A stretch of 64,000 nt of DNA from Escherichia phage tootiki, in sequence record MN850647.1; one strand, written 5' to 3'. The notes beneath the pieces were generated by a model. It did not search any database and was not told the origin of the DNA. It saw nothing but the letters and a program-made list of their open reading frames with translations. This document shows, piece after piece, positions 10,732 to 30,393 of the stretch. Position 1 is the first letter of the stretch. The number at the start of each line of letters is the position of its first letter. The position numbers and the translations under genes were made by a program.

Positions 10732-11231
10732 TAATTAAACCTTACTTTTTGTTTAAGGACTGTTGAATGGTTACCAGATTCATCTACCACATTTACAATC
10801 ATATCATAAACTTTACCTTTGACAAGTACTTTGTAATCATTTTGTGAAAAAATGTACTCAAGTCTGTTTGTTTCTTTATTAACTGTCATTGGAGATTGAA
10901 ATGCAGTGTCGAGGGTAATGAAAGCGGCTTCAATGCTATTAACATTGATACGTTTATTCTCGCAGTTATATAACTTTACACCCAAAAGGCATGAACTGTC
11001 AAATGGAATTTTAACAATTTCACTACAATTTCCTGAAATAAACGGTTTTCCACTCATTGGTGCATCAAGTAACCTGCAAATAGTGAAAACGTCAGAGGCT
11101 CCACCATCACTTACATAACCTGAAAGGCTGACCCTTGAGCCAGCCTCTACAGATAATTTGTCAGTGATAATAAGAACACCTCTATACGAATGCACTCGTG
11201 TAGCATTTGAAATAGAGATAACTTCAGCCAT
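10731..11231 (-). CDS. hypothetical protein
   Basis: 166 aa ORF between portal and protease. Confidence 0.4.
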   Translation of the reverse strand: MAEVISISNATRVHSYRGVLIITDKLSVEAGSRVSLSGYVSDGGASDVFTICRLLDAPMSGKPFISGNCSEIVKIPFDSSCLLGVKLYNCENKRINVNSIEAAFITLDTAFQSPMTVNKETNRLEYIFSQNDYKVLVKGKVYDMIVNVVDESGNHSTVLKQKVRFN

Positions 11232-12706
11232 TATTTATTTGCCTTATTTGCTGTGCTTGGGTCTTTTGCTGAAGGTGTCTTTGCAGTACCTTCTCCAGCG
11301 GTCTTATAACCATCTCCTGAACGGCTTTGGCTATTTGGAGAAAGCTTTTCAGATACTGGCTGAGACTCATCAGCAGGAGGAAGACCAATATGCTCTCTAA
11401 GCTTGTTAGATAGCTCTTTGTCAACTTCCAAAGCACCTACTGCAACAGTCTTCTGAATATAAGAACCAATTGCTTCAAGGTCTGGAGTTTCGATATCATC
11501 ATATGTGATTTGCACATGTTCTTCATCATCCCACATATTAAGAGCATAAGTCTGTGCAACTAAATCACGGTTAATTACATTCTTAATTTGCTTCAGCAGG
11601 ATATCTACTGACATCGCTAATAAGCTTGTCTTAGAATCTGCAAGAGAGAATGAACCATATTTTGACTGACCCATAGCAAGAACATCTGACATAAATGCCA
11701 TCATAATCTGCTTGGAATATCTGTCAATAATAGAACCTGTGTCGTATGCTTTAGCACCCTGTCTAGAGACTAATGAGAACTCAAAAATATCCTCTTTAGT
11801 ATCTGGGTCGATATATCTAGGCCAGATTAAACCTGCTCTGTCATTTGCAATCATATCATTAACAACAGTTTTGCAGTATTGTACGAAAGCTTTCTTTTCA
11901 GGTTCTGCATTCTCATCCAGATAGTCCGGTGGTAAACCAATCTTTGGCATACCAACCAAGTCTCTTGAAACACCAACAGCTTCGTACTCTTCAATCTGTA
12001 CTTTATATTTCCACGGTACATAAGCATTAAGTAATGGTGAACGACCTTCTGGGTTTCCATATTCATCGTCATACTTGAACAGCATGAATTTAGCTCGTGG
12101 AAGTTTTCTTGTTAGTGGTCTTTCTCCAAGATTAATTGCTCCAGCAATATGTGAAACATTTCTCAGATTCTGTCTAACACCAGTAACTTTTCTAAAGTCT
12201 TCGTCAAAATACCACTTATCAAGTGTTGATTGGTTTCTGATTGGTAATTTAGCCCATCCAATTAGACCATCATCAAATTTTGACTGGTACTTTCCTTTTT
12301 TACCCTGACGCTTCTTATAAACTTTCTCGTTAACACAGAACCCATAAGTGCAGAATGACATTACAGAGTTAATAAAATCTGCCCAATCATGCTCCATGTC
12401 ATCCATTAAAGAATTAAAGAAGTCTGCTCTTTCAAGCATTTTAGGGTCTTGCTCTTTTCCCTTTGGAGGTACGAATCTCCAGTTGACTTTTCTGACAAAC
12501 ATCTTAATAATATTTACAGATGCTGCTACAGCAGGGTCACGCATCATTAATTGGAAAGTTTTAATACTTTCAGGGAACCTTAGTGCCTGACGAGGTTCTT
12601 CATAGATTCTTCCATTCTTAACCTTCAGACCCAAAGAACCTACTTCACCCATTCTAAATGGTGGTAAGCTTTCTTGTGTTTCTGTAATTTCTGCCATTCT
12701 TCTCAC
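11231..12706 (-). CDS. portal protein
   Basis: 491 aa ORF immediately downstream of large terminase. Confidence 0.75.
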   Translation of the reverse strand: MRRMAEITETQESLPPFRMGEVGSLGLKVKNGRIYEEPRQALRFPESIKTFQLMMRDPAVAASVNIIKMFVRKVNWRFVPPKGKEQDPKMLERADFFNSLMDDMEHDWADFINSVMSFCTYGFCVNEKVYKKRQGKKGKYQSKFDDGLIGWAKLPIRNQSTLDKWYFDEDFRKVTGVRQNLRNVSHIAGAINLGERPLTRKLPRAKFMLFKYDDEYGNPEGRSPLLNAYVPWKYKVQIEEYEAVGVSRDLVGMPKIGLPPDYLDENAEPEKKAFVQYCKTVVNDMIANDRAGLIWPRYIDPDTKEDIFEFSLVSRQGAKAYDTGSIIDRYSKQIMMAFMSDVLAMGQSKYGSFSLADSKTSLLAMSVDILLKQIKNVINRDLVAQTYALNMWDDEEHVQITYDDIETPDLEAIGSYIQKTVAVGALEVDKELSNKLREHIGLPPADESQPVSEKLSPNSQSRSGDGYKTAGEGTAKTPSAKDPSTANKANK

Positions 12707-12713
12707 CTAGCTA

Positions 12714-14330
12714 TCAACGTCTAAGCCCCTCATATGGGTTTCCTCTCACTAAGTCTGTGTGAGCACCCATTGATGGTGGCTTGAATAATTTAACTTCGTT
12801 AAGACTGTTGAAAGCATCACTGGTAGCATCCACTTGGTCATCTTTAGTTTTACCATCACCACAAAAACCTTCAAGTTCTTGAAAGTAAGCTTCGTTCCAA
12901 CTGCCTCTCAAGACTTTTACAAGTCCAGCTTCAGAAGCAGCAGAAAATCCCGCAAAGCGGGTAACTTTATCTTTATTTGTTGGTTTAGCTCTTGCGCGAT
13001 AACCTTTCTCGGCAAGTTTCCTGATGAGGGATGTTGCATAGGATTTACCAGCAGCGCCTGGGTCTTGAGGGATAAAAATACCAGTTCGCTTACCGTCACT
13101 TTCAGCAGTCAAATTAATTTGTGTTTCGACTCCAGAGGGTCTATCTCTAAATCTTACTACATCAATGATATAATAGCAACCGTCTTTTTTAGATTTACCC
13201 ATCTTAACACCCGCTGTCCAGTCTGGGTTAGGGTTAATTTCAGATGGTAAAGTCGCTGCTAAGTCCCATGCTCTGACATCAAACACATCTTCTGGGAGTG
13301 AATCAACAATCTCACACCATTGTCTTTGCCAATAGTTTGAACCTTCTGCACGAGCCTTCCAGTTACCGAAACGAAGTCTTGCAACGTTTACAGGTGTGTT
13401 GTTTTCCAACTTACCACGATATTTAGGCTCTAAGAAGTCAAGAATTGGGTTATCATCAATCGTACCAGAGATGAAGGTGTATGTCTGAGGAATCTCAAGA
13501 GGGAACATTTCAAGAATCTTGTCTCTCTCCCAATCAGAAACCATCACACCATCATTCATAACATACCAACGAATACGACCACACTTCTCAGGGTCTGGGT
13601 AACCTTCTTCATCTAAGAATGGCTCTACCCAATCATAAATGAAGTGGTCTCTGTCTGGGTTCATAGAAATCTTCATGTATGAATCGCCTTCAGCACCAGA
13701 ACGTAGACGGGTCTGTAGGTATGAAATCTGTGAAGCAGAGAAGTGTGTACCTTCGTCAAAGTAGATAGCTGAGTATTCAATACCCTGATGACCTTCAGCG
13801 TGCTTTTCAAGTTCTAAGTAGGTGAACTTAATAGTTGCCCCAGAAGGGAACGTGATAGTCATCTTCTGCTCGTGAGGAACCCCACCAAACTTACCAAATA
13901 GTTTCTTTGCAGCAGGCCATAAACCACCTTGTAACTGTGTTGTATTTCGACGGAAATATACAGCATTATAGTTAGGGTCTTCAATAAACCTTAAAGAGTC
14001 CATTAACAATGCAGCAGTTTTACCAGCACCAGCAGCACCACCATAGAGTACCAAGTCAGCATTAGTGTTTAAAAAGACCTCTTGAGAACCCGGCTGAGGG
14101 GCTACATAGTTCTTATCAGTCATCAACTTAAAGATAAGGCGAACTTGGTCTGGTGTGTATCTTAATAAAGTCAGAATTTGAGTTGGAAGGAATTTAGAGG
14201 GGTCTTTACCGAATGATTTGATAATTTCTTTTACTTCATCAGAAAGCCCCAACTCTCCAGCTAGGACTTTCCTAACATCTTCCACTCGCTTCTGCTTAAC
14301 AGCATTTAAATCCATTAAGCGCCTCCGCAA
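12714..14330 (-). CDS. terminase large subunit
   Basis: 538 aa; Walker A LYGGAAGAGKT; C-terminal nuclease-like acidic residues. Confidence 0.9.
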   Translation of the reverse strand: MRRRLMDLNAVKQKRVEDVRKVLAGELGLSDEVKEIIKSFGKDPSKFLPTQILTLLRYTPDQVRLIFKLMTDKNYVAPQPGSQEVFLNTNADLVLYGGAAGAGKTAALLMDSLRFIEDPNYNAVYFRRNTTQLQGGLWPAAKKLFGKFGGVPHEQKMTITFPSGATIKFTYLELEKHAEGHQGIEYSAIYFDEGTHFSASQISYLQTRLRSGAEGDSYMKISMNPDRDHFIYDWVEPFLDEEGYPDPEKCGRIRWYVMNDGVMVSDWERDKILEMFPLEIPQTYTFISGTIDDNPILDFLEPKYRGKLENNTPVNVARLRFGNWKARAEGSNYWQRQWCEIVDSLPEDVFDVRAWDLAATLPSEINPNPDWTAGVKMGKSKKDGCYYIIDVVRFRDRPSGVETQINLTAESDGKRTGIFIPQDPGAAGKSYATSLIRKLAEKGYRARAKPTNKDKVTRFAGFSAASEAGLVKVLRGSWNEAYFQELEGFCGDGKTKDDQVDATSDAFNSLNEVKLFKPPSMGAHTDLVRGNPYEGLRR

Positions 14331-14336
14331 ATAGAA

Positions 14337-14537
14337 TTATTCAGAGTCTGTAGCAGTCTCTTCTTTCTTAACTTCGAACTTTGCATCAACAGCATCAAGA
14401 AGTGCATCCATAGATGCCTCTTTAATATCAATACCTGTTGCTACAGACAATCTGTCTGCAATTGCCATGATAGTATTCTGCATAAATTCTAGCTTCTTAT
14501 TAGCTTCATAAAGTTCTTTATAAACGGTCTCGCTCAT
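14337..14537 (-). CDS. hypothetical small acidic protein
   Basis: 66 aa ORF just upstream of terminase. Confidence 0.4.
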   Translation of the reverse strand: MSETVYKELYEANKKLEFMQNTIMAIADRLSVATGIDIKEASMDALLDAVDAKFEVKKEETATDSE

Positions 14538-14571
14538 TATGTTTTCTCCAAATAGTTAACCATGTTTCCCC

Positions 14572-14597
14572 TTAAAAAAGACGGCACAGAGACCGTC
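14572..14597 (-). terminator. intrinsic terminator downstream of tRNA array
   Basis: minus strand hairpin GACGG-TCTCTGTG-CCGTC followed by TTTTTT. Confidence 0.5.
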
Positions 14598-14759
14598 AAG
14601 GAGAAACCACAATGTACGTCAGAGACATACTGTATAAGTCTTCTTATAAAGTATAACTCTGTAAAAAAGCCCTGTCTAAAAATACTCTTCGGTAGCGAAA
14701 GGAAGAATACTTATAGCAGGGCATTATTATTATTTTAATTGAGAGAGAGTAAAATAAAT

Positions 14760-14835
14760 TGGAGAATCCGAAGGGACTCGAACCCTTATAAACCTGTTCT
14801 GCAGACAGGTACATATCCATTTCTGTCACGGATTC
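14760..14835 (-). tRNA. tRNA-Cys (anticodon GCA)
   Basis: hand-folded cloverleaf: acceptor GAATCCG/CGGATTC, anticodon loop CTGCAGA, T-arm AAGGG-TTCGAGT-CCCTT, CCA encoded. Confidence 0.7.
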
Positions 14836-14839
14836 AAAT

Positions 14840-14932
14840 TGGAGGAAGATACCAGACTTGAACTGGTACACCGATTTCTCAGCTACTGGCAGTTTAGCAA
14901 ACTGCTCCCTTACCTTTTAGGGTTAATCTTCC
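14840..14932 (-). tRNA. tRNA-Ser (anticodon GCT), class II
   Basis: acceptor GGAAGAT/ATCTTCC, anticodon loop TTGCTAA, long variable arm, T-arm ACCAG-TTCAAGT-CTGGT. Confidence 0.65.
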
Positions 14933-14933
14933 A

Positions 14934-15668
14934 TTATTTCTGTAATGCGTTCTTCATTTCTGGTGTTGCAATAGTGTCAATCACACCAGTTTTACAAGCA
15001 TCGTCAAACCAGTCTGGTAAGATACCTGCTAAGAACCCATTGATATTCGTTTTAAGGTACTCTGCAATAAGGGCAGCTTCTTCTTCAATCATCTGCACAA
15101 CTTCATCTGCATAAGCTGTAATCTTTGAAATACCTTCATTAATTTTACTGACAGCTTGGTTAGCTAAATCAGAAACAGTGTCAAGACCCTTATCAATAGC
15201 GTCTTGTAAGTCACTTAACACACCGTTAACACTGTCTAGTGTGCTGTTAATCATGTCAATAGCTTGCTGACCATACTCTGTAGCAACACCCATAATACCA
15301 CTAAATGGTGTACAACCAACTTGTTCTCCTGCTGCACCCATAACATTGGAGTATCCCTTTGCTACCTGCATACGTGATGAAAACTCATCAATAGACTTTT
15401 GACCGTAGTCTGTTAGGGTCTTAGTAGTCGCTGTAGTGCTTGTAAGGCTTGTTGTAAAGCTGTTTAGAAGGACTGTTGTAAGTCCAGCAGCAACAAGTTT
15501 CTCCTTCATTGTAGGGTCTGTTACAGAGCTAATAGAGCTTACAAGTGATGTAGAGGCAGCTACGGTTCCACCGAGAACTGCTGCACCAGTAATAAGTGGG
15601 TTAGAAAACCCTTTACCGGTTTTTAAGAGATTAAAAATCTCCTTACCTTGTTCTGTCATCTCTTTCAT
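14934..15668 (-). CDS. hypothetical Ala/Ser/Thr-rich protein
   Basis: ORF track start at 15731 overlaps tRNA-Phe; start moved to internal ATG at 15668 (MKEMTEQ). Confidence 0.4.
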   Translation of the reverse strand: MKEMTEQGKEIFNLLKTGKGFSNPLITGAAVLGGTVAASTSLVSSISSVTDPTMKEKLVAAGLTTVLLNSFTTSLTSTTATTKTLTDYGQKSIDEFSSRMQVAKGYSNVMGAAGEQVGCTPFSGIMGVATEYGQQAIDMINSTLDSVNGVLSDLQDAIDKGLDTVSDLANQAVSKINEGISKITAYADEVVQMIEEEAALIAEYLKTNINGFLAGILPDWFDDACKTGVIDTIATPEMKNALQK

Positions 15669-15686
15669 TAAGCACCTTTGAAATTG

Positions 15687-15761
15687 GTAGTCCAGTGGGA
15701 TTTGAACCCTCTTCTCATGTTTTTCAGACACGCGCTTTAACCATATAAGCTACTTGGACTA
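15687..15761 (-). tRNA. tRNA-Phe (anticodon GAA)
   Basis: acceptor TAGTCCA/TGGACTA, anticodon stem CGTGT/ACATG loop CTGAAAA, T-loop TTCAAAT; D-arm weak. Confidence 0.55.
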
Positions 15762-15765
15762 TAAA

Positions 15766-15842
15766 TTGGGGTGACCTACGGGATTTGAACCCGTATAGAC
15801 CATGTTCACAGCATGGGTCATTACCATTTATGATAAGGCCAC
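15766..15842 (-). tRNA. tRNA-His (anticodon GTG)
   Basis: acceptor GTGGCCT/AGGTCAC, D-stem TCAT/ATGA, anticodon loop CTGTGAA, discriminator C, CCA encoded. Confidence 0.7.
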
Positions 15843-15873
15843 ATTTAAGGACTCTCGTAAGAACCCTTAGAAG

Positions 15874-15949
15874 TGGCAGCGGCATAAGGATTTGAACCTT
15901 AATAGGACAGCTTCAGAGACTGCTGCATTGCCAGTTATGCTATACCGCT
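15874..15949 (-). tRNA. tRNA-Gln (anticodon CTG)
   Basis: acceptor AGCGGTA/TGCCGCT, D-stem GCAT/ATGC, anticodon loop CTCTGAA, discriminator G. Confidence 0.65.
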
Positions 15950-15954
15950 AAAAT

Positions 15955-16033
15955 TGGTACTCCATATCGGATTCGAACCGATACATAACACAGATTTTAA
16001 GTCTGGCCTCTCTGCCAATTGGAGTAATGGAGC
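15955..16033 (-). tRNA. tRNA with Leu-type anticodon TAA, class-I length
   Basis: acceptor GCTCCAT/ATGGAGT, T-arm ATCGG-TTCGAAT-CCGAT, anticodon loop CTTAAAA, discriminator A; no long variable arm. Confidence 0.45.
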
Positions 16034-16035
16034 AT

Positions 16036-16111
16036 TGGCGGGGGATGTTGGAATTGAACCAACTTCTTCGATTTCAAAGACCGAGGTTTTAACCTTGTAA
16101 ACTAATCCCCT
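16036..16111 (-). tRNA. tRNA-Gln (anticodon TTG)
   Basis: acceptor with A1-C72 mismatch, D-stem GTTT/AAAC, anticodon stem TCGGT/ATCGA loop CTTTGAA, discriminator G. Confidence 0.6.
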
Positions 16112-16119
16112 TTAAATCT

Positions 16120-16677
16120 TTACTTTCTCAGTGGATGAATAAAGAATGCCAACATAACTCTTTCCCTTGAGAATGCTCTTTCTTCTGGGACAACACTTTT
16201 TAGTTTCCATCCAATATAAATTCTCCAGTAAAACTGTTTACCAAAGACTTTAATTGATGGGATAAAAGCGAATAACCCCCAAGCATTACTGTTCCACATT
16301 AGGAGATAGCCAGTCTGATTATCTTCAGGGTCAGAACTTACGTTGATATTACCTTTCCACTTAGTAACATCTTTTACATCTCTTCCTAATACATGGTAAG
16401 AGAAGTTATAAGCTTTGTTTCTCCAGAGCCATCCAACTCTCTGCATGTAGACACCCAGTTTACCAATCTTTCTAATCTTAGCCCATCTTTTGACGTGGCC
16501 TTCGTCACCATCAATCGGGTTGTCATAGGTCTCCATCCATCTGAATCCAAAAGGCAGATGTCCCTTCTTCTCACTGTAGAATGGAACTACGAAAGGTGCT
16601 AAGATGACTGCTAGGGTTGCTGCAAATGGTTCTAGTAAAGCTAGGAAAATCCATGAAGCATACTTCAAATATCTCAT
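16120..16677 (-). CDS. hypothetical membrane protein
   Basis: 185 aa ORF with hydrophobic N-terminus, embedded in tRNA array. Confidence 0.45.
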   Translation of the reverse strand: MRYLKYASWIFLALLEPFAATLAVILAPFVVPFYSEKKGHLPFGFRWMETYDNPIDGDEGHVKRWAKIRKIGKLGVYMQRVGWLWRNKAYNFSYHVLGRDVKDVTKWKGNINVSSDPEDNQTGYLLMWNSNAWGLFAFIPSIKVFGKQFYWRIYIGWKLKSVVPEERAFSRERVMLAFFIHPLRK

Positions 16678-16696
16678 CTAAATAGCCTCTTAAAAT

Positions 16697-16774
16697 TGGT
16701 GTTCCAAGACGGATTCGAACCGTCACTAATACAAGGTTTGAGCTTGCATCCTCTGCCAATTGGGATACTGGAAC
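16697..16774 (-). tRNA. tRNA with Leu-type anticodon CAA, class-I length
   Basis: acceptor GTTCCAG/TTGGAAC, T-arm GACGG-TTCGAAT-CCGTC, anticodon stem GCAAG/CTTGT loop CTCAAAC, discriminator A. Confidence 0.45.
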
Positions 16775-16775
16775 A

Positions 16776-16850
16776 TGGTACTCACTAAAGGACTTGAACC
16801 TTTTTCTTCATCTTGTAAGGGTGGTGTTTTACCATATAAACTAAGCGAGT
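16776..16850 (-). tRNA. tRNA-like, anticodon position reads TAC (Val) but anticodon stem poorly paired
   Basis: good acceptor, D-arm GTTT/AAAC and T-arm AAAGG-TTCAAGT-CCTTT; anticodon stem only 3 of 5 pairs. Confidence 0.4.
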
Positions 16851-16945
16851 GTGAAAGAGGTCTTAAGTTGTGCCGCTAACTCAACTCCGTGGAATTTGTT
16901 ACGGTCTTCAGTTGACACCAGCGGTCTTTCACTTGACCTCTGAAT

Positions 16946-17022
16946 TGGTGCTGCTCACAGGACTCGAACCTGCATTTCCATCCTTACAAGGGATGTGTAA
17001 TAGCCAATTATACGAAAGCAGC
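16946..17022 (-). tRNA. tRNA-Thr (anticodon TGT)
   Basis: anticodon stem CATCC/GGATG loop CTTGTAA, T-arm GCAGG-TTCGAGT-CCTGT, discriminator A. Confidence 0.7.
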
Positions 17023-17029
17023 ATTAATT

Positions 17030-17104
17030 TGGAGCATCCAGAGGGAATCGAACCCTCAACCTCAGTTTGGAAGACTGTAATTTTCCCGTTTAAACTATGG
17101 ATGC
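17030..17104 (-). tRNA. tRNA-Gly (anticodon TCC)
   Basis: acceptor GCATCCA/TGGATGC, anticodon loop CTTCCAA, T-arm GAGGG-TTCGATT-CCCTC, discriminator T. Confidence 0.65.
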
Positions 17105-17110
17105 ACTAAT

Positions 17111-17186
17111 TGGTGGAGAAGCAGGGAATTGAACCCTGTACTTAAGTTTGCAAAACTTATGTTTTAACCATGTAAACTACATCCCC
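17111..17186 (-). tRNA. tRNA-Ala (anticodon TGC)
   Basis: D-stem GTTT/AAAC, anticodon stem TAAGT/ACTTA loop TTTGCAA, T-arm CAGGG-TTCAATT-CCCTG, discriminator A. Confidence 0.7.
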
Positions 17187-17192
17187 AATATC

Positions 17193-17268
17193 TGGTACAG
17201 GTGGAGGGAATTGAACCCATCGTCTTACTGATTAAGAGTCAGCCGCATAACCATTTTGCTACACCTGC
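17193..17268 (-). tRNA. tRNA-Lys (anticodon CTT)
   Basis: acceptor GCAGGTG/CACCTGT, anticodon loop CTCTTAA; T-stem ATGGG/CCCTC imperfect, same as tRNA-Lys(TTT). Confidence 0.55.
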
Positions 17269-17275
17269 ATTAATT

Positions 17276-17353
17276 TGGTAGGAGACAAGGGATTCGAACC
17301 CTCAAACATCTCGTTCTAAGCGAGATAGGTTTACCAATTACCGTCAATCTCCC
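17276..17353 (-). tRNA. tRNA with Leu-type anticodon TAG, class-I length
   Basis: anticodon stem ATCTCG/CGAGAT perfect, loop CTTAGAA, T-arm GAGGG-TTCGAAT-CCCTT, discriminator A; no long variable arm. Confidence 0.5.
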
Positions 17354-17432
17354 ATTAAATCTTTTTAGAGAACTTCTAAGAACCTAAGCAACAAGGTTCC
17401 ACAACAAGCTGTAATAACCTTAGAAGCCCTCT

Positions 17433-17452
17433 AAAAAGACCTAAAAAGGTCT
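17433..17452 (-). terminator. intrinsic terminator-like hairpin inside tRNA array
   Basis: minus strand AGACC-TTTTTA-GGTCT followed by TTTT. Confidence 0.4.
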
Positions 17453-17611
17453 TTGCATAGTCTTGTTTAATCCGGTGACTATAACCTTTGGAGAGCTTGA
17501 TATTATCTCTTCTCCGTGACACCTACTAGGTGCTTTACTGTGCATGTACGACAATACACTAGGGATACCAAAGCAACATCCGAATGAAGCTTGGCTTTAA
17601 ATCTTATTAGG

Positions 17612-17699
17612 CGGTAAGTAAAGGAGTCGAACCCTCACCGTATCTCTACAGTGGCAACTGTTTTCAAGACAGTTTGGCTACCATTAGCCGCTACCTACC
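17612..17699 (-). tRNA. tRNA-Ser (anticodon TGA), class II
   Basis: acceptor GGTAGGT/ACTTACC, anticodon stem ACTGT/ACAGT loop CTTGAAA, 20 nt variable arm, discriminator G. Confidence 0.7.
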
Positions 17700-17717
17700 C
17701 CTAATAAGACTTTGGCA

Positions 17718-17795
17718 TGGGACGGAGGAGTTGAACCACTTTGAAACGGTTTTGGAGGCCGTTGCTCATGCCTTAGAGTCTTAACATCGTCCCAC
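17718..17795 (-). tRNA. tRNA-like; possible Trp (anticodon CCA) with enlarged D-loop
   Basis: acceptor GTGGGAC/GTCCCAT plus G73 and encoded CCA, T-loop TTCAACT; core does not fold canonically. Confidence 0.35.
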
Positions 17796-17932
17796 ACTAT
17801 AATTCGAAGCTTACCGTATTTTCACAACACTGTAAAGCCCCTTCTCAGATTATTTACATGTTCTGGAAAACATGAGATACAGACCACCTCCTTACAGGAA
17901 GACCCGCTTAGGTCGTCTAAGTAATCTGCTAA

Positions 17933-18280
17933 CTAATACTTTGCATGTCTTACCCTATGGCAATTTGAACATAGCAAAACACATTTGTCAAGTTCATCTT
18001 TTAGTTCTTGAGAGAACTTAAGGCTTTTCCTATGACCAATGTTAAAATCTTTATCTGAAGGATTCAAATGATGGAAGTCATACACTGCTGGATGATATTT
18101 CTTACCACAATCATGACAAACCCCACCTTTGTACTCAATAGCTGAGAGTTTAAGTGCTCTTTGTCTTTCTATGGTTTGCTCATTAACACACTTTTTACAG
18201 TATGAATGAGTTCTCCTACCATCTTTCATGTAGAAATCATTTTCATCCTTGCTAAGTTTGCACCTAATACAAGTTTTCAT
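17933..18280 (-). CDS. HNH endonuclease
   Basis: Cys pairs CIRCK and CKKC, HH-LNPSD-N motif, CSNCH; start moved to MKTCIRC because track start overlaps a tRNA. Confidence 0.7.
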   Translation of the reverse strand: MKTCIRCKLSKDENDFYMKDGRRTHSYCKKCVNEQTIERQRALKLSAIEYKGGVCHDCGKKYHPAVYDFHHLNPSDKDFNIGHRKSLKFSQELKDELDKCVLLCSNCHRVRHAKY

Positions 18281-18294
18281 GATTTCTCCAAAAT

Positions 18295-18376
18295 TGGTCG
18301 AGGCGGCAGGACTCGAACCCGCATACTCCACTTACTCGGTTAACGTCTGTTTAGAAGACAGATGAGATACGCCCCG
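18295..18376 (-). tRNA. tRNA-like; possible Arg (anticodon TCT) with atypical geometry
   Basis: acceptor CGGGGCG/CGCCTCG, T-arm GCGGG-TTCGAGT-CCTGC, CCA encoded; perfect hairpin TCTGT-CTTCTAA-ACAGA but no room for a D-arm. Confidence 0.35.
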
Positions 18377-18624
18377 TAATTATCTTTAAAGACTCTCTTA
18401 GAAAGCCCTTAAAGATGCCCACCTTATTAATCATACCGTGGGCTAGTACGCCAAATTCTTTGATGAGGGATTGGAAGACCTCACTGGTGTTTAGCCTATC
18501 AAGCTACTGCCAGAAAAACATTGTCGTTTGCATTTATTTTAAATTTGCAAAATAGACGCTACGCAACGAAAACTAAGGTTACTATAAAGTAGTCACATCT
18601 CAGTGTCAACAACTTTATTGAAAG

Positions 18625-18699
18625 TGGTTGTAGGTGAGGGTATCGAACCCTCTTCTAACGGTTATCAGCCGTTTGCATTACCATTTATGCTAACCCACA
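18625..18699 (-). tRNA. tRNA-Ile (anticodon GAT)
   Basis: D-stem GCAT/ATGC, anticodon stem AACGG/CCGTT loop CTGATAA, T-arm GAGGG-TTCGATA-CCCTC, discriminator A. Confidence 0.7.
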
Positions 18700-18701
18700 A
18701 T

Positions 18702-18778
18702 TGGAGGTTCAGGTGGGATTCAAACCCACATTCATAGGGCTTATGAAACCCTTGCATTACCTTATCTGCGACTGAACC
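18702..18778 (-). tRNA. tRNA-Met (anticodon CAT)
   Basis: acceptor GGTTCAG/CTGAACC, anticodon stem AAGGG/GCCCT loop TTCATAA, T-arm GTGGG-TTTGAAT-CCCAC. Confidence 0.65.
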
Positions 18779-18783
18779 ATTTT

Positions 18784-18859
18784 TGGTAGAAGTGGAGGGA
18801 TTCGAACCCATCGCCTGTCAGATTAAAAGTCTGCCGCATCACCATTCTGCTACACTTCC
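18784..18859 (-). tRNA. tRNA-Lys (anticodon TTT)
   Basis: acceptor GGAAGTG/CACTTCT, anticodon loop CTTTTAA, discriminator A; T-stem ATGGG/CCCTC imperfect. Confidence 0.55.
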
Positions 18860-19010
18860 ATTAAATCATCTTTGCAGTAACCTACGCAGACCTTGCTAAA
18901 GGGTCTGTAGAGTCATTTCATATTAAGCTAATCTAGAATCATACTAAGGAAATTCATCGGCACTCATGGGACGACATAATTAGCCACATAAGCTACTGCA
19001 AAGATAATTA

Positions 19011-19141
19011 CCAGACCGTTGTTTATCATCTTAAGTGCTACCATTACACCAACTCGACCTCTGCCGAGTGAAGGAATCGAACCTTCGCCTTTTCTTTACC
19101 GAGAAATAGATTGTTTAAGTTTTGCTGTAAACGGTCTTCTG
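19011..19141 (-). ncRNA. structured spacer module a: terminal inverted repeat enclosing a tRNA-like T-arm and D-arm-like segment
   Basis: minus strand CAGAAGACCG...CGGTCTGG ends pair; internal GAAGG-TTCGATT-CCTTC and AGTTGGTGTAATGGTAGCAC; no anticodon arm. Confidence 0.4.
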
Positions 19142-19154
19142 TAAATTTGTTGAG

Positions 19155-19230
19155 CCAGACCAAGTTTTAAATTTTTCAAAATTGAATTGGCTTGAAAATA
19201 TCATACATTCTTGCTGTATTTGGTCTTCTG
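19155..19230 (-). repeat. spacer module b (CCAGACCA...TGGTCTTCTG inverted-repeat unit)
   Basis: same terminal inverted repeat as module a. Confidence 0.4.
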
Positions 19231-19291
19231 CTCCTTTAAAGAATACTCGTAAGAACTCTTTAAGGGAGGGGCTAAATAGCCCTCTCAAAAT

Positions 19292-19368
19292 TGGCGGCTA
19301 CGATGAGACTTGAACTCAAATCATCTCCCGTGACAGGGGAGTATTTTCTCCAGTTAAACTACATAGCC
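19292..19368 (-). tRNA. tRNA-Asp (anticodon GTC)
   Basis: anticodon stem CTCCC/GGGAG loop CTGTCAC, acceptor GGCTATG/CGTAGCC, discriminator G. Confidence 0.7.
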
Positions 19369-19373
19369 TTTAT

Positions 19374-19461
19374 TGGTGTGCCGTGTAGGAGTCGAACCTA
19401 CCGAGTCTCAATGACAAGGGATTTACAGTCCCCACCGCTACCATCTACGGGATAACGACAC
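19374..19461 (-). tRNA. tRNA-Tyr (anticodon GTA), class II
   Basis: T-arm GTAGG-TTCGACT-CCTAC, anticodon loop CTGTAAA, about 15 nt variable arm, discriminator A. Confidence 0.7.
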
Positions 19462-19469
19462 ATTTAATT

Positions 19470-19546
19470 TGGCGGTTAGTCAGGGATTCGAACCCTGTGC
19501 CATTCGCTTAACAGGCGACCGCACATACCTTATGTGCTTCCTAACC
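19470..19546 (-). tRNA. tRNA-Asn (anticodon GTT)
   Basis: D-stem GCAC/GTGC, anticodon loop CTGTTAA, T-arm CAGGG-TTCGAAT-CCCTG, discriminator G. Confidence 0.65.
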
Positions 19547-19557
19547 TTAATACATTG

Positions 19558-19618
19558 CCAGACCGTGTTTTTTCTTTTATCCGCAAAAAAGTATTTTGTT
19601 GCTGAATACGGTCTTCTG
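19558..19618 (-). repeat. spacer module c (CCAGACCG...CGGTCTTCTG inverted-repeat unit)
   Basis: same terminal inverted repeat; internal GCAA/TTGC hairpin. Confidence 0.4.
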
Positions 19619-19624
19619 CAAAAT

Positions 19625-19701
19625 TGGAGGCGGGTGCAGGAGTCGAACCTGCCGATACCATGCTAATGAGACATGTGAGACGCCCTTTCTCTATACCCGC
19701 A
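19625..19701 (-). tRNA. tRNA-Met (anticodon CAT), second copy with 1-72 mismatch
   Basis: T-arm GCAGG-TTCGACT-CCTGC, D-stem GAGA/TCTC, anticodon stem CATGT/GCATG loop CTCATTA; T1-C72 unpaired. Confidence 0.55.
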
Positions 19702-19712
19702 ATTCTCAATGA

Positions 19713-19784
19713 CCAGACCAAATATCTTCTTTGTCCGATTTCGTGTCAGATGAGTAGATTAAGTTTGCTGTAATTGGTCTTCTG
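19713..19784 (-). repeat. spacer module d (CCAGACCA...TGGTCTTCTG inverted-repeat unit)
   Basis: same terminal inverted repeat as modules a-c. Confidence 0.4.
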
Positions 19785-19791
19785 TCAAAAC

Positions 19792-19869
19792 TGGCGTTCC
19801 AGAAGGGATTTGAACCCTCAGATATCCACTTTGAAAGAGTGGTGACTTTACCATTTTGTCTACTGGAAC
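19792..19869 (-). tRNA. tRNA-Glu (anticodon TTC)
   Basis: acceptor GTTCCAG/CTGGAAC, anticodon stem CCACT/AGTGG loop CTTTCAA, discriminator G. Confidence 0.7.
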
Positions 19870-19876
19870 ATTAATT

Positions 19877-19953
19877 TGGTCTCTGTTGGAGGACTTGAAC
19901 CTCCGGCCTTACCGCCCCAAACGGAATGCTCTACCAAGCTGAGCTAAACAGAG
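19877..19953 (-). tRNA. tRNA-Pro (anticodon TGG)
   Basis: acceptor CTCTGTT/AACAGAG, D-stem GCTC/GAGC, anticodon loop TTTGGGG, T-arm GGAGG-TTCAAGT-CCTCC. Confidence 0.65.
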
Positions 19954-19980
19954 ATAAACTTTTCAAACTCTATGTAACCA

Positions 19981-20009
19981 CTTTAACATTATTTTTTAGT
20001 GGTTGTCAA
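19981..20009 (-). promoter_or_regulatory. sigma70-like promoter for the tRNA array
   Basis: minus strand TTGACA, 17 nt spacer, TTAAAG, about 25 nt upstream of first tRNA. Confidence 0.45.
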
Positions 20010-20079
20010 GAACTTTTTTAAAATATTTTTCAGTATCTTAGAAAAGCTCTCATTTCGTTTCTATGTAGGACATATTAAA

Positions 20080-20111
20080 GGGTATCAAACACATTGTCAA
20101 TACCCTTTTTA
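20080..20111. terminator. hairpin terminator after vWA gene
   Basis: GGGTAT-N14-ATACCC hairpin followed by TTTTT on plus strand, immediately after stop of 20119-21534. Confidence 0.4.
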
Positions 20112-20118
20112 AAACTTT

Positions 20119-21534
20119 TTACCAGATGTAACGGTCAATCATTACTGCTTTGAGCATTACGCTGATTGGGTCAAACTTCTCACCACCAAGCAGAGCTTTT
20201 AAAGTGGCTGGAGAGAACCCTGATACCATTGCTACACCATTATCCTTAACAGACACTTCGCAAGTACCATTACGGTTTGCTAAGTACCAGAATACTAGTT
20301 GTGGCATTTCGTATCCAGCTTTTTTGTACTTACTCTGAATTGCTTCAAAGTTTGTACGACCATTTGCACCATCAACCTGATTGAACTCCATATCAGAGAA
20401 GATGATAAGCTTACTTGGCATATCTTTCTGAGTCAAGTTGTTTCTATTACCTACCTCAAGAATACGGTCAAAAGCTGCTTGTAAGTTAGTTGAACCATAT
20501 TCAACATGACGCATTACCTGACGATGACGGTTTCGTAAATCACCACTCAGTTCAATGAAATGAGGGTTTGTTGAATAGACCATTAACTCATCTTTAAAGC
20601 AACCTGTATTGCGTTCTGCTATATACAAGGCAAGTGATACACCAATATCAAGGGCAGTGATTGAGCCAAGATTCACCCAAGACATTGAGCTTGAAACATC
20701 AGTCATACACAGGATGTTTTCACCTTCTGCCATCCAGTTTGGTAGTGCTTTCCACTGCTCATTAGCAACATCTGCATTACCATACTTAATAGATTTAATC
20801 ACATCGTATGGGTAAACAGCACCAGCGTTAATCTTAGCCTCACCCTTTGATAGTGATTCGATGTAAGCTTTGTAACGTTCCCCATCTTTACGGTTAAAGA
20901 GCTTTTGGTAACGTGCAGCAGCAAGTGAGGGAATCTTGCTGTAGTCAATCTTACCAAACTCATTAGCAGAGATTTTTTGCTCAACCGTATCAGACAGTGC
21001 AGATAACAGTGTGCGATACTCCTTCTCGCTTAAGTTTGCAAATTTACAGAAACGTTTTACAAACTGTTTGTGGCGTGGTTTTACTCGTGGCAACCACTTA
21101 GCTGCTAAACCTGCTGTTGCAGGGTCTAGTAATACTGCTTCTAAATGTTTGAAGGCATCTGTCTCAAAACGAGTATCTACAAAGATTTTGAAGTCATCAA
21201 AACGACCCAGTTCTGCAATCTTATCCATAATGCGAAGAACCTGTGTAGGTTCTAAAACCTTATCTTCAATCGCTTGAAGTAAAACAGTTCGGAAAGCTTT
21301 ACGCTCACCCATACCTTCTCGTACATCTCGCATATGCAGTAAAATACGAACTGCAACATCAACATCCTCACGCAAAGCTTTGTAGAACAGGTCTGGTAAG
21401 ATTTCTACATTGCTACGGCTTGAGCCAGCGGATTTGTAGAAGTCTACCAGAGCAGACATTGATGAAGTATGGTTTACAGCACCATTTTCAGTTCGACCTG
21501 CATGAAGGTGCGCATGTTTAAATAACTCGCTCAT
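20119..21534 (-). CDS. vWA/MIDAS-motif protein with helical N-terminal domain (DUF2828-like; Ro60-like architecture)
   Basis: 471 aa; MIDAS-like DVSSSM around residue 275; N-terminal TENGA...S..LVDFY...GSSRS pattern. Confidence 0.55.
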   Translation of the reverse strand: MSELFKHAHLHAGRTENGAVNHTSSMSALVDFYKSAGSSRSNVEILPDLFYKALREDVDVAVRILLHMRDVREGMGERKAFRTVLLQAIEDKVLEPTQVLRIMDKIAELGRFDDFKIFVDTRFETDAFKHLEAVLLDPATAGLAAKWLPRVKPRHKQFVKRFCKFANLSEKEYRTLLSALSDTVEQKISANEFGKIDYSKIPSLAAARYQKLFNRKDGERYKAYIESLSKGEAKINAGAVYPYDVIKSIKYGNADVANEQWKALPNWMAEGENILCMTDVSSSMSWVNLGSITALDIGVSLALYIAERNTGCFKDELMVYSTNPHFIELSGDLRNRHRQVMRHVEYGSTNLQAAFDRILEVGNRNNLTQKDMPSKLIIFSDMEFNQVDGANGRTNFEAIQSKYKKAGYEMPQLVFWYLANRNGTCEVSVKDNGVAMVSGFSPATLKALLGGEKFDPISVMLKAVMIDRYIW

Positions 21535-21615
21535 ATTTTACTCTCTTCTCTCATTTGTTGTTTGATGTGACAGACTTTAGAGCAACTTTGTAGAGTCTGT
21601 CAACATCTTTTAAGA

Positions 21616-21987
21616 TTATTTTTTGAGAGTCGCTACAGCAGAGAACGTTGGTTTGTTATCTGTCTGTTGTTGACCACCATTATCAGGAGTCTTCTTAGTG
21701 TCTGCTGCAAGTGCTTTCATCTCACCTGCTGAGTGAGTAAAGATAGTTTTACCGACCTCAATCATACTCTTGATGGTTACATCATCTGTGTTTAACCCGA
21801 ACTCTGCAAGCTTAGCAGCGTCCCTTGTAACAATCGCCTCAAACAACTTTGCAGCAAACTCAGCAGAATTATCAATGGTCAGTTGAGCTTTTACGAGTGA
21901 GCTTTTGTTACGAGAGCCTTTTGGTCTTCCAGATGGGTTTCCAGACTGGCCTTTTTTAAACTGGCCTTTGTTTGTTCTGTTTTTCAT
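21616..21987 (-). CDS. small protein with GNPSGRPKG motif (DUF5681-like; small terminase candidate)
   Basis: 123 aa; N-terminal FKKGQSGNPSGRPKG, a motif I associate with proteins encoded just upstream of large terminases. Confidence 0.45.
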   Translation of the reverse strand: MKNRTNKGQFKKGQSGNPSGRPKGSRNKSSLVKAQLTIDNSAEFAAKLFEAIVTRDAAKLAEFGLNTDDVTIKSMIEVGKTIFTHSAGEMKALAADTKKTPDNGGQQQTDNKPTFSAVATLKK

Positions 21988-22163
21988 TGGTATGCCTCTT
22001 ATAAGACCTCTTAAAAGGCTTTTAAGATAAAAGATAGATATCCAGAAAGATATCTGTTTAAATAGCCTTTTTAGAGGAACCTTTTAAGTTATCTTCTAAG
22101 TATTTATAAGCCTACACCTTGTCAAGTACTTTGTCAACAACTTTTTTAACTTGCAATAGTTCT

Positions 22164-22192
22164 TGACTTGTTGTATGGATTACTGTACCATC
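22164..22192 (+). promoter_or_regulatory. candidate sigma70-like promoter for plus-strand island
   Basis: TTGACT, 17 nt spacer, TACCAT about 45 nt upstream of first plus-strand ORF. Confidence 0.3.
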
Positions 22193-22236
22193 TTACTTAA
22201 AGCTGTAGGTCTGCCTTGTTCTACAAAGGAGACTTA

Positions 22237-22398
22237 ATGAGAAAATCAAACAACCCGAAGAAAGGTAAAAATACCAATCACTGTAAGGAATCAAAAAGGG
22301 TAGAGTTACTCTACTATTCATCCTCTGAAATTGGTCTGTACCTGTTCTTTCAAAATTACAGAAGACAAGAGGATTATCTATGTGTAGTTCCCAATTAG
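22237..22398 (+). CDS. hypothetical small basic protein
   Basis: start moved to ATG preceded by AAGGAG. Confidence 0.45.
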   Translation: MRKSNNPKKGKNTNHCKESKRVELLYYSSSEIGLYLFFQNYRRQEDYLCVVPN

Positions 22399-22613
22399 AA
22401 ATCGCAGATATTATAGATTTATATCAAACTGCAAAGAGTCATGGCTATATAACCTCAATTGGAAAGAATAGTCACTATGATGCTTTGACTGGAATGTATT
22501 TCAGGGCAATGGCTCAATCTAGTGAACAACACTTAGTAGTTTCTTCCAGTGAGTTTACTTCGTTTCTCTATTGCAGCAAAATTATAAATCGCAGGAGAAC
22601 TGAAAAATGTTAA
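22380..22613 (+). CDS. hypothetical protein
   Basis: 77 aa ORF, overlapping junctions with neighbours. Confidence 0.4.
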   Translation: MCSSQLEIADIIDLYQTAKSHGYITSIGKNSHYDALTGMYFRAMAQSSEQHLVVSSSEFTSFLYCSKIINRRRTEKC

Positions 22614-29232: not shown

Positions 29233-30348
29233 TTATAAAATTTTATCGGTTGTCCCAACCTCTGGGTCACCATCATATGTGAATAAAATATCTACCCTTC
29301 TTAACAACCTTCTTAATCTTACTCTCTATATAGTTATATAGTACTATATAGTATCTTAGTAACTATCTAGTGGTCTTAATAGCCCTCTGTATAGCCCTTC
29401 TAAATAGCCTTCTAAACACTCTTCTAACAAGCCCTCTTAACCACCTATACAATCACCTTAACCATCCCTCTACACCCTCTTAGAAGCTCCTATACACCTC
29501 TTAATCTCTAGGTTAGCTATGGCACTCTCTATAGGTGTTCACTAGGTAATACTAAGCCTCTATATAGACTGTTTTAACAAACTTAACAGGAATATCTTTA
29601 CAGACCTTACCTCACAAGGTCTAACACGGTACTAACAAGGTATCTTGTAAGCCTGTTTCTACCTGTATTTTTAAAAGACTGTATAGGTAATTATTCAGAA
29701 TTTTAAAATTTTTATAAAATAGGACTATCAAGTCATTTTTTAGGGTCTTTGAAGGAACTGAAAAATATCTGTCTAGGATGTATATCTGCTTGGTAGCCCT
29801 TAACAGCTCCCTTACAAGTACTTTGCAAAATTTTAAAATATCCTTAACAATCTCTTAACAGTTCTCACATCTTCTTAACAACTCTTCAAAGGTCTTAACA
29901 GATTCTTAACAGAACTAACAAGGCTGTAACAGTTTCTTAACAGTTGATACATAATCTTTACAGAGGCTTAACAGATGACTAACAAGAGCTAACAAGTTAA
30001 TTTTAAAGAGTTATTTTGTTAAGATTATTAACAAGTTTCTAACAAGTCTTTAATCTTTTTAACAAGCTATTAACATGGTCACTATCTCTTTCTTATCGTT
30101 CCCTTTCCTTTCTTAGTGATTCTTTAAACATACCTCTTAAAAGCTCTCTATAGCTCTTTATAAGCTCTTTTAAGTCTCTTCCTAGTAGTTACACCCCAAC
30201 TGTACAGATAGCTCTCTATAGGGCTTTACAGGAGCTTTTAAGGCTATGTCAAAGACTCTTACAAGGCTTTTACGTGGTCTTAACAGAGATTTAACAAGGG
30301 GCTAACAAGTTGCTAACAAGTGTCTTAAAAGCATAACTATGTAGGGAT

Positions 30349-30380
30349 TGTTAAGAAATTGTTAAGAAAATGTTAAGGGG
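30349..30380. repeat. three inverted-orientation iterons (TTGTTAAG)
   Basis: TTGTTAAGAAATTGTTAAGAAAATGTTAAGGG; reverse complement of the upstream TAACA iteron. Confidence 0.6.
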
Positions 30381-30393
30381 GCTAGTATTTACG

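Follow-up and report, generated by a model that had tools for sequence, protein, structure and literature searches.

A DUF5681 gene upstream of a tRNA island and the large terminase gene

The window examined here is a 64,000-nucleotide stretch of DNA from Escherichia phage tootiki (MN850647.1). On its minus strand, at 21616–21987, lies a gene for a 123-residue protein of the DUF5681 family that is probably the small terminase subunit (TerS) of the phage; it has an ATG start and an AAGAGG ribosome-binding site 7 nt upstream. The gene for the large terminase subunit (TerL), terL, lies on the same strand at 12714–14330 (Terminase_6N, 8.6e-43; Terminase_6C, 4.4e-33; phrog_979, 7.9e-234) and is followed by the portal protein gene (11231–12706, minus; Pfam and PHROG matches), which starts the head module. 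With the DUF5681 gene upstream, the gap to terL is 7,285 nt, in agreement with the roughly 7.3 kb given in a preliminary description of this DNA. Within the gap is a tRNA island (14760–19953, minus) of 24 tRNAs by ARAGORN, broken by three protein genes.

A megablast search with positions 12000–22500 matched 316 phage records, 200 of which cover at least 80% of the query at 95–96% identity. The matches include Salmonella phage Felix O1 (NC_005282) and many Escherichia Felixounavirus isolates. By these matches the window is that of a Felixounavirus, a Felix O1-type myovirus of the Ounavirinae, and the identity of 95–96% to both Felix O1 and the coliphages marks positions 12000–22500 as a well-conserved tRNA and packaging segment of such phages. 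Felix O1 is a classic phage of diagnostics and biocontrol. In its RefSeq record the ortholog of the DUF5681 gene is Felix01p078/ORF41, with the product name 'DUF5681 domain-containing protein', and the genes that follow are ORF42 ('RNA-binding protein'), the tRNAs, ORF49, ORF51 and ORF52 (terL).

A promoter-like element, TTAAAAAAGTTGTTGACA as read on the minus strand, is located at 22119–22149 in the divergent intergenic region upstream of the DUF5681 gene and recurs upstream of the tRNA array. The DUF5681 gene probably has its own promoter in this phage. It is the first gene of a minus-strand morphogenesis unit; in Felix O1, gp41 was described as the first gene of the gp41–79 morphogenesis unit (Whichard et al. 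2010, PMC3185647).

Architecture of the DUF5681 protein

The product of the gene matches Pfam DUF5681 (PF18932) with an E value of 2.3e-14 and 54.1 bits, compared with a gathering cut-off of 27.5 bits, and residues 7–78 align with profile positions 2–71 of 77. Membership of the family is far beyond chance. The protein also matches phrog_4114, which PHROG labels 'function unknown', at E = 2.4e-75. It keeps the invariant K-G-x-S-G-N-P-x-G-R-P-x-G-S-x-N motif of the family (PF18932; PHROG 4114 and 26239). The stretch FKKGQSGNPSGRPKG corresponds to residues 10–24 (nt 21916–21960), and the basic N-terminal arm contains the motif GNPSGRPKGSRNK (nt 21916–21960).

The charge of the protein is concentrated at the N-terminus, with a net charge of +9 over residues 1–30 and 0 over the remainder. 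In an AlphaFold2 (AF2) model with a predicted local distance difference test (pLDDT) score of 65, residues 1–27 form a disordered arm, helices span residues 28–38, 43–54 and 57–61, a long helix spans residues 72–98, and a low-complexity linker and a short tail complete the chain. Two parts of the protein are strongly conserved among Ounavirinae: in the arm and the residue that follows it, K12-G13...N17-(P18)-x-G20-R21-P22-x-G24-S25-R26-N27-K28 are invariant or nearly so, and in the C-terminal tail, P113-x-F115-x-x-V118-A119, P113 and A119 show no variation and F115 and V118 almost none. Conservation of these four tail residues hints at a predicted partner-binding peptide.

The arm resembles an AT-hook. 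For profiles built from two independent DUF5681 alignments, the top PDB sequence match was the HMGA AT-hook, in a short and non-significant alignment (E = 0.76–0.82). The AT-hook of HMGA1 (PDB entries 2EZD and 2EZE), PRGRPKGSKNK, is identical to the DUF5681 segment PSGRPKGSRNK at nine of 11 positions, with one conservative Arg/Lys change. Both have a G-R-P core followed by basic residues within a disordered basic segment, and in DUF5681 the G-R-P core and the flanking Lys/Arg residues are invariant. In a Pfam scan the window protein did not match the AT_hook family. The resemblance, seen in sequence, is a lead rather than a result. Together with its conservation, the motif suggests a TerS with a predicted DNA-binding arm in place of a helix-turn-helix (HTH).

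DUF5681 genes adjoin terL in other viruses

Using two conserved DUF5681 peptides, we fetched 80 IMG/VR loci, the best 80 of 197 confirmed matches and a set rich in marine clades. Three are Felixounaviruses and 77 are other viruses, and 70 of the 77 have enough DNA for a downstream open reading frame (ORF). TerL was called by Pfam scans and clustering. The ORF immediately after DUF5681 is terL in 67 of these 70 loci, usually with an overlap of 10–50 nt; in one of them (L088) terL is split into two ORFs. In two further loci (L038 and L049) terL lies one short ORF beyond, and one locus (L086) shows no terL. The preliminary description had linked the N-terminal motif with small proteins encoded directly upstream of large terminases, and this is borne out by a downstream terL in 69 of 70 loci.

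The TerLs beside DUF5681 form three unrelated clusters, comprising 59 of the Terminase_3 type, five of the T7/psiM2 type and four of the Terminase_6N/6C type. The TerLs of L077 and L088 likewise bear Terminase_6 domains, so that six are of the Terminase_6 type altogether, as in the window. A search of 5.8 billion proteins recovered distant DUF5681 homologs (P0053, P0046 and P0057; 25–28% identity overall), which we traced to their contigs; in each, a large terminase gene overlaps the DUF5681 stop (Terminase_6N/3/3C or TIGR01630/T7-type). Among cultured phages, DUF5681 occurs in the Ounavirinae and also in Leptospira phages LE3 and LE4, where it overlaps an annotated terL. We found no cultured phage in which a DUF5681 homolog is annotated as TerS.

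A profile search returned at least 6,408 DUF5681-related cluster representatives. Most members are about 110 residues long and abut terL; the Ounavirinae branch differs in being detached from terL and in having its own C-terminal P-T-F-x-x-V-A tail. So tight and widespread a coupling of DUF5681 to terL, in viruses with TerLs of different clades, classically marks a small subunit. One pair lies on a bacterial contig (GCA_041643195.1; loci L002/L003, 6587–9822), where it is preceded by a ParB_N-N6_N4 methyltransferase gene and adjoins a JetABCD/Wadjet-like cluster; the remaining neighborhood is unlike a full prophage.

Essentiality of an ortholog and reports on Felix O1

Pooled knockout fitness has been determined with PhageMaP for Bas63, a Felixounavirus (bioRxiv 10.1101/2024.10.10.617714). 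Gene order in Bas63 is as in the window, with genes 129 (DUF5681) and 130 (DUF2828) followed by tRNAs (Asn-Tyr-Asp...), interspersed ORFs, gene 1, gene 2 (terL) and gene 3 (portal), and we take gene 129 as the ortholog on the basis of its product name ('DUF5681 domain-containing protein') and the identical gene and tRNA order. Its reported fitness is −3.11/−3.22/−3.51 in MG1655 and −1.47/−0.89/−1.39 in S17. The MG1655 values are −3.4/−2.7/−4.1 for portal and −1.9/−2.8/−2.6 for terL, and gene 129 scores in the same range as the portal, protease and capsid genes and no less negatively than terL (bioRxiv 10.1101/2024.10.10.617714). Positive fitness was reported in the same screen for gene 130 (vWA), all measured tRNAs and the island ORFs. 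Since insertions are tolerated throughout the 7 kb that lead from the DUF5681 gene to terL, its fitness loss is unlikely to be a polar effect on terL. The DUF5681 gene of Bas63 is essential in its own right.

The annotation of Bas63 names no TerS. Felix O1 has been reported to lack TerS and to have only TerL, and its list of virion proteins does not include gp41 (Whichard et al. 2010, PMC3185647).

The mode of packaging bears on the need for such a subunit. Felixounavirus D4 (PP886228) has direct terminal repeats according to PhageTerm (PMC11737134), and the first and last 581 nt of its record are identical. This repeat corresponds to about 29800–30382 of the window, a stretch without coding sequences at a distance of some 8 kb from the DUF5681 gene, and it is here that the physical end of the genome probably falls. 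A defined terminal repeat of 581 bp points to site-specific packaging, which calls for a recognition subunit.

A candidate small terminase

Taking the adjacency, essentiality and architecture together, we consider it probable that the DUF5681 protein is the small terminase of this phage and that it has been parted from terL by a tRNA island present throughout the Ounavirinae. TerS proteins in general have an N-terminal DNA-binding part, a helical oligomerization center and a C-terminal segment that binds TerL (PMC6854486). With its basic arm, helical core and conserved tail, the DUF5681 protein fits this plan, except that a disordered, AT-hook-like arm would take the place of the HTH. Phage TerS proteins such as G1P of SPP1 and SF6, gp16 of T4 and TerS of 44RR, gp3 of P22 and gp1 of RcGTA share with it a small size, a basic N-terminus, a helical center and a C-terminal tail. 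Like them, the DUF5681 family is encoded immediately upstream of terL, usually overlapping it, and the family resembles them further in that its orthologs are essential (Bas63) and not a component of the virion (Felix O1). DUF5681 differs from these proteins in showing no detected sequence or fold similarity to them, in that its conserved element is a disordered G-R-P arm with no HTH detected, and in the 7.3 kb that separate the gene from terL in the window. RcGTA gp1 was considered as a relative and rejected, because it has no N-terminal arm.

In the mechanism that we propose, the DUF5681 subunit would recognize phage DNA and would recruit and regulate TerL. The disordered basic arm, with its invariant, AT-hook-like G-N-P-x-G-R-P-K-G-S-R-N-K, would contact DNA at the packaging start, where it would probably bind AT-rich DNA through the minor groove. 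Oligomerization would fall to the helical core, of which the long helix (about residues 72–98) is a part, and the C-terminal P-x-F-x-x-V-A tail, beyond the low-complexity linker, would dock TerL. TerL would then cut and package unit genomes bearing the 581-bp direct terminal repeat. DNA binding, oligomerization and TerL binding by the DUF5681 protein are all predicted properties.

Several observations weigh against the assignment. (i) The window protein matches no TerS family in Pfam (Terminase_2/4/5, Phage_terminase, Nu1 and others), NCBIfam or PHROGs; the NCBIfam search gave no match of any kind. Only two of 70 DUF5681 family members weakly match a TerS family, phrog_24579, at E values of about 0.007. 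(ii) PDB sequence searches with the protein and two family profiles returned only the short HMGA AT-hook, and no fold match to a known TerS family was obtained. (iii) A Pfam scan matched no HTH family. (iv) The AT-hook match is itself short and, at an E value of about 0.8, not significant, and the first Arg of the R-G-R-P core of HMGA1 is replaced in DUF5681 by Ser, Asn or Ala (Ser in the window protein). (v) In the window the DUF5681 gene is not adjacent to terL, and promoter-like and terminator-like sites lie between them. (vi) The window TerL has no BLASTP or phmmer match among 76 sampled TerLs encoded beside DUF5681; the exact pairing of the window is therefore unseen in adjacency, and what is shared is the Pfam type only. 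(vii) Essentiality was scored in a related phage by a pooled screen, which reports fitness and not a packaging defect.

Because neither a TerS family nor, by sequence, a solved structure is matched, the claim is a functional one, namely that the protein would work as a TerS, and not one of family membership. The small-terminase reading of the preliminary description is strengthened by the adjacency to terL elsewhere and the essentiality in Bas63; profile searches for both TerS and DUF5681 families, which it had proposed, matched the second and not the first. It had named two findings that would count against it, homology to a non-packaging protein family and a different TerS gene beside terL. 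Searches of Pfam, PHROGs and NCBIfam gave no such homology and no recognizable TerS at that position.

If the assignment is correct, it would close an annotation gap of long standing in the Ounavirinae, as hundreds of Felixounavirus genomes label this gene hypothetical or DUF5681. It would also assign a role to a DUF whose members number in the thousands, improve the detection of packaging modules in metagenomic viral contigs, and point to a type of TerS without the usual HTH. The adjacency of terS and terL, a rule widely used for finding TerS, would then be one that a tRNA island can break stably. For engineering, for example on the Bas63 platform, the locus offers one essential gene adjoining about 7 kb of dispensable DNA.

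Alternative explanations

An alternative that we consider unlikely is that the DUF5681 protein is essential as a DNA-binding factor outside packaging, for example as an activator of late or tRNA transcription or an architectural protein in it, and that its adjacency to terL merely reflects operon position. Such a regulator would suit a gene that stands first beside a divergent promoter region, encodes an AT-hook-like basic arm, shares a promoter-like element with the tRNA array and has no homology to known TerS, and the essentiality of the gene is equally compatible with it. However, DUF5681 overlaps the terL start codon in at least 60 diverse phages whose TerLs span three clades or more, a pattern that marks a terminase partner rather than a transcription factor. 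Felix O1-type genomes also contain no other recognizable TerS candidate.

Less likely still is that the true small terminase is encoded by a 66-codon ORF abutting terL (14337–14537, minus; phrog_4397, PHROG label 'function unknown') and that DUF5681 has another essential role. This ORF occupies the canonical place immediately 5′ of terL, ending 7 nt ahead of the terL start; a small ORF is found at the same position in Erwinia phage phiEa104 and Pectobacterium phage Wc4-1, the latter weakly homologous (phrog_4397, E = 0.004), and the BASEL authors began the Bas63 genome at this gene. Its predicted product, however, is helical and acidic (isoelectric point 4.4, net charge −7) with no DNA-binding-like segment, and it is a weak candidate. 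By BLAST it is detectable only in Felixounavirus-like phages (256 records, none from Erwinia), and beyond the subfamily its family shows no general association with terL. In PaP1, discussed below, there is no ORF in this place, and the ORF found there in PE09 matches a 'head fiber' PHROG. The corresponding Bas63 gene 1 carries no fitness value in PhageMaP.

The least probable alternative by our estimate is that a small terminase is altogether absent from Felix O1-type phages and that TerL, in which about 95 residues precede the Terminase_6N domain, works alone as suggested in 2010. Against this, the statement of Whichard et al. that only TerL is present was based on lack of homology, the genome contains an essential gene of a family that elsewhere is always linked to terL, and the defined 581-bp terminal repeat implies site recognition.

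Age and composition of the tRNA island

The order DUF5681, tRNA array, terL is common to Felix O1, the window, Erwinia phage phiEa104 and Pectobacterium phage Wc4-1, with gaps between DUF5681 and terL of 8,588, 7,285, 4,861 and 5,729 nt, respectively. In each of the four phages terL is preceded by a tRNA array, a DUF7217-like gene and a small ORF, and the position of the DUF7217 gene is conserved in the Erwinia and Pectobacterium relatives. The vWA gene, which follows DUF5681 in the window, is missing from phiEa104 and Wc4-1, where the tRNAs directly follow DUF5681; judged by this distribution, it is a lineage-specific passenger. The island of Felix O1 contains three HNH genes and that of the window one. 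The patchy vWA gene and the variable number of HNH genes indicate that the island was enlarged by later additions.

Because DUF5681 abuts terL outside the Ounavirinae, its separation from terL is the derived state. We infer that the split of an ancestral terS–terL pair by the tRNA array is ancient and composite, neither recent nor a single event. The preliminary description had suggested that the tRNA array and its passengers were inserted into an ancestral terS–terL junction. The ancestral junction is in keeping with the adjacency of the family elsewhere, but the order shared by Felix O1, phiEa104 and Wc4-1 does not fit a recent or single insertion, and the passengers did not all arrive with the array, since their ages differ. 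A comparison with relatives that lack the island, also suggested there, found no such Ounavirinae phage among the records inspected (Felix O1, phiEa104 and Wc4-1). A search for direct repeats around the island, as possible insertion scars, gave only tRNA-derived and promoter-like repeats.

Small array-linked proteins in other phage groups

The TerLs next closest to that of the window are from Pakpunavirus PaP1 (41% identity), Otagovirus PE09 (40%) and the Vequintavirinae phage PVP-SE1 (36%). In all three phages terL is preceded on its own strand by tRNA arrays, and each encodes a small protein upstream of or within the array that precedes terL: PaP1 gp045 (L093, 6007–6330) and PE09_00055 (L094, 1028–1348), both phrog_3900, and PVP-SE1 gp081 (L101, 1259–1624), phrog_3330. 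Together with rV5 gp070 (phrog_3330), these proteins are 105–121 residues long and are organized like the DUF5681 protein: a basic segment with G-R-P at the N-terminus is followed by a helical middle, an acidic linker and, at the C-terminus, a P-x-F tail. Pakpunavirus, Otagovirus and Vequintavirinae likewise have no annotated TerS.

Homology between DUF5681 and the PaP1 gp045 family was considered and dropped at an hhalign probability of about 1% or less, and neither hhalign nor Pfam scans gave profile-level homology between DUF5681 and the phrog_3900 and phrog_3330 proteins. Their likeness to DUF5681, as far as layout and position go, is thus an architectural and positional parallel only. By analogy, they may be the unannotated TerS proteins of their phage groups. 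A broader reading, which we put forward tentatively and with less than even confidence, is that DUF5681, with its at least 6,400 clusters, is a large unrecognized class of TerS with an AT-hook-like arm and, jointly, that the terS–terL split in the Ounavirinae, Pakpunavirus, Otagovirus and Vequintavirinae predates the divergence of these groups. If both parts were true, each group would have kept a sequence-diverged version of the G-R-P arm, helical core and P-x-F tail, which would explain the missing TerS annotations.

Other features of the interval

The first gene after DUF5681 (20119–21534, minus) encodes a vWA/Ro60-like protein with Pfam DUF2828 and DUF7788 and a PHROG match to phrog_850 ('RNA-binding protein'; Ro60/TROVE-like). 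The Bas63 ortholog, gp130, is dispensable and counters Ppl defense, possibly together with tRNA-like or Y-like RNAs (bioRxiv 10.1101/2024.10.10.617714). Two sigma-70-like promoter matches on the minus strand immediately precede the first tRNA, within 19980–20112 (20009–19980 and 20100–20072; TTGACA-17/18-TAATAT/TAAAGT). The three protein genes within the island, all on the minus strand, encode an HNH homing endonuclease (17933–18331; Pfam and PHROG), a DUF7338 membrane protein (16120–16677; Pfam, E = 2e-61) and a DUF7217 protein (14934–15731; Pfam and PHROG). The last is the equivalent of Felix O1 Gp49, which was found in the virion proteome (PMC3185647); it weakly resembles tape-measure segments and is non-essential in Bas63 (gene 159). 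A terminator-like hairpin with a T-run (14597–14580, minus) lies between the last tRNA (Cys) and the 66-codon ORF. The preliminary description had listed the vWA gene, the tRNA promoter, the endonuclease, the membrane protein and the terminator, all of which we recovered as genes or as promoter- and terminator-like sites, and had omitted the DUF7217 gene and the 66-codon ORF.

Its count of about 26 tRNAs was slightly too high. Rfam adds one tRNA-like match to the 24 ARAGORN predictions and misses one, a tRNA-Met at 19625–19701, giving a union of 25. The additional match (18298–18376, minus) scores 33 bits, above the gathering threshold, and overlaps the start of the HNH ORF; weak, sub-threshold tmRNA-like matches adjoin it at 18378–18682 (minus). 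Together these may represent a tRNA that the homing endonuclease has left degenerate or interrupted.

Two repeated elements were also observed. A 19-nt element, TTAAAAAAGTTSTTGACA in the minus-strand reading, consists of an A-tract followed by a −35 hexamer and is present in five copies at four sites, one upstream of the DUF5681 gene (22119–22149) and the others upstream of and inside the tRNA array (20094–20112, 20003–20021 and 18603–18621). Its recurrence suggests that several similar host-type promoters drive the DUF5681–tRNA region. A 28-nt element, TTGCTGTAAACGGTCTTCTG..., occurs four times in inter-tRNA spacers at the upstream end of the array (19122–19149, 19211–19238, 19599–19626 and 19765–19792) and could be a processing signal or a remnant.

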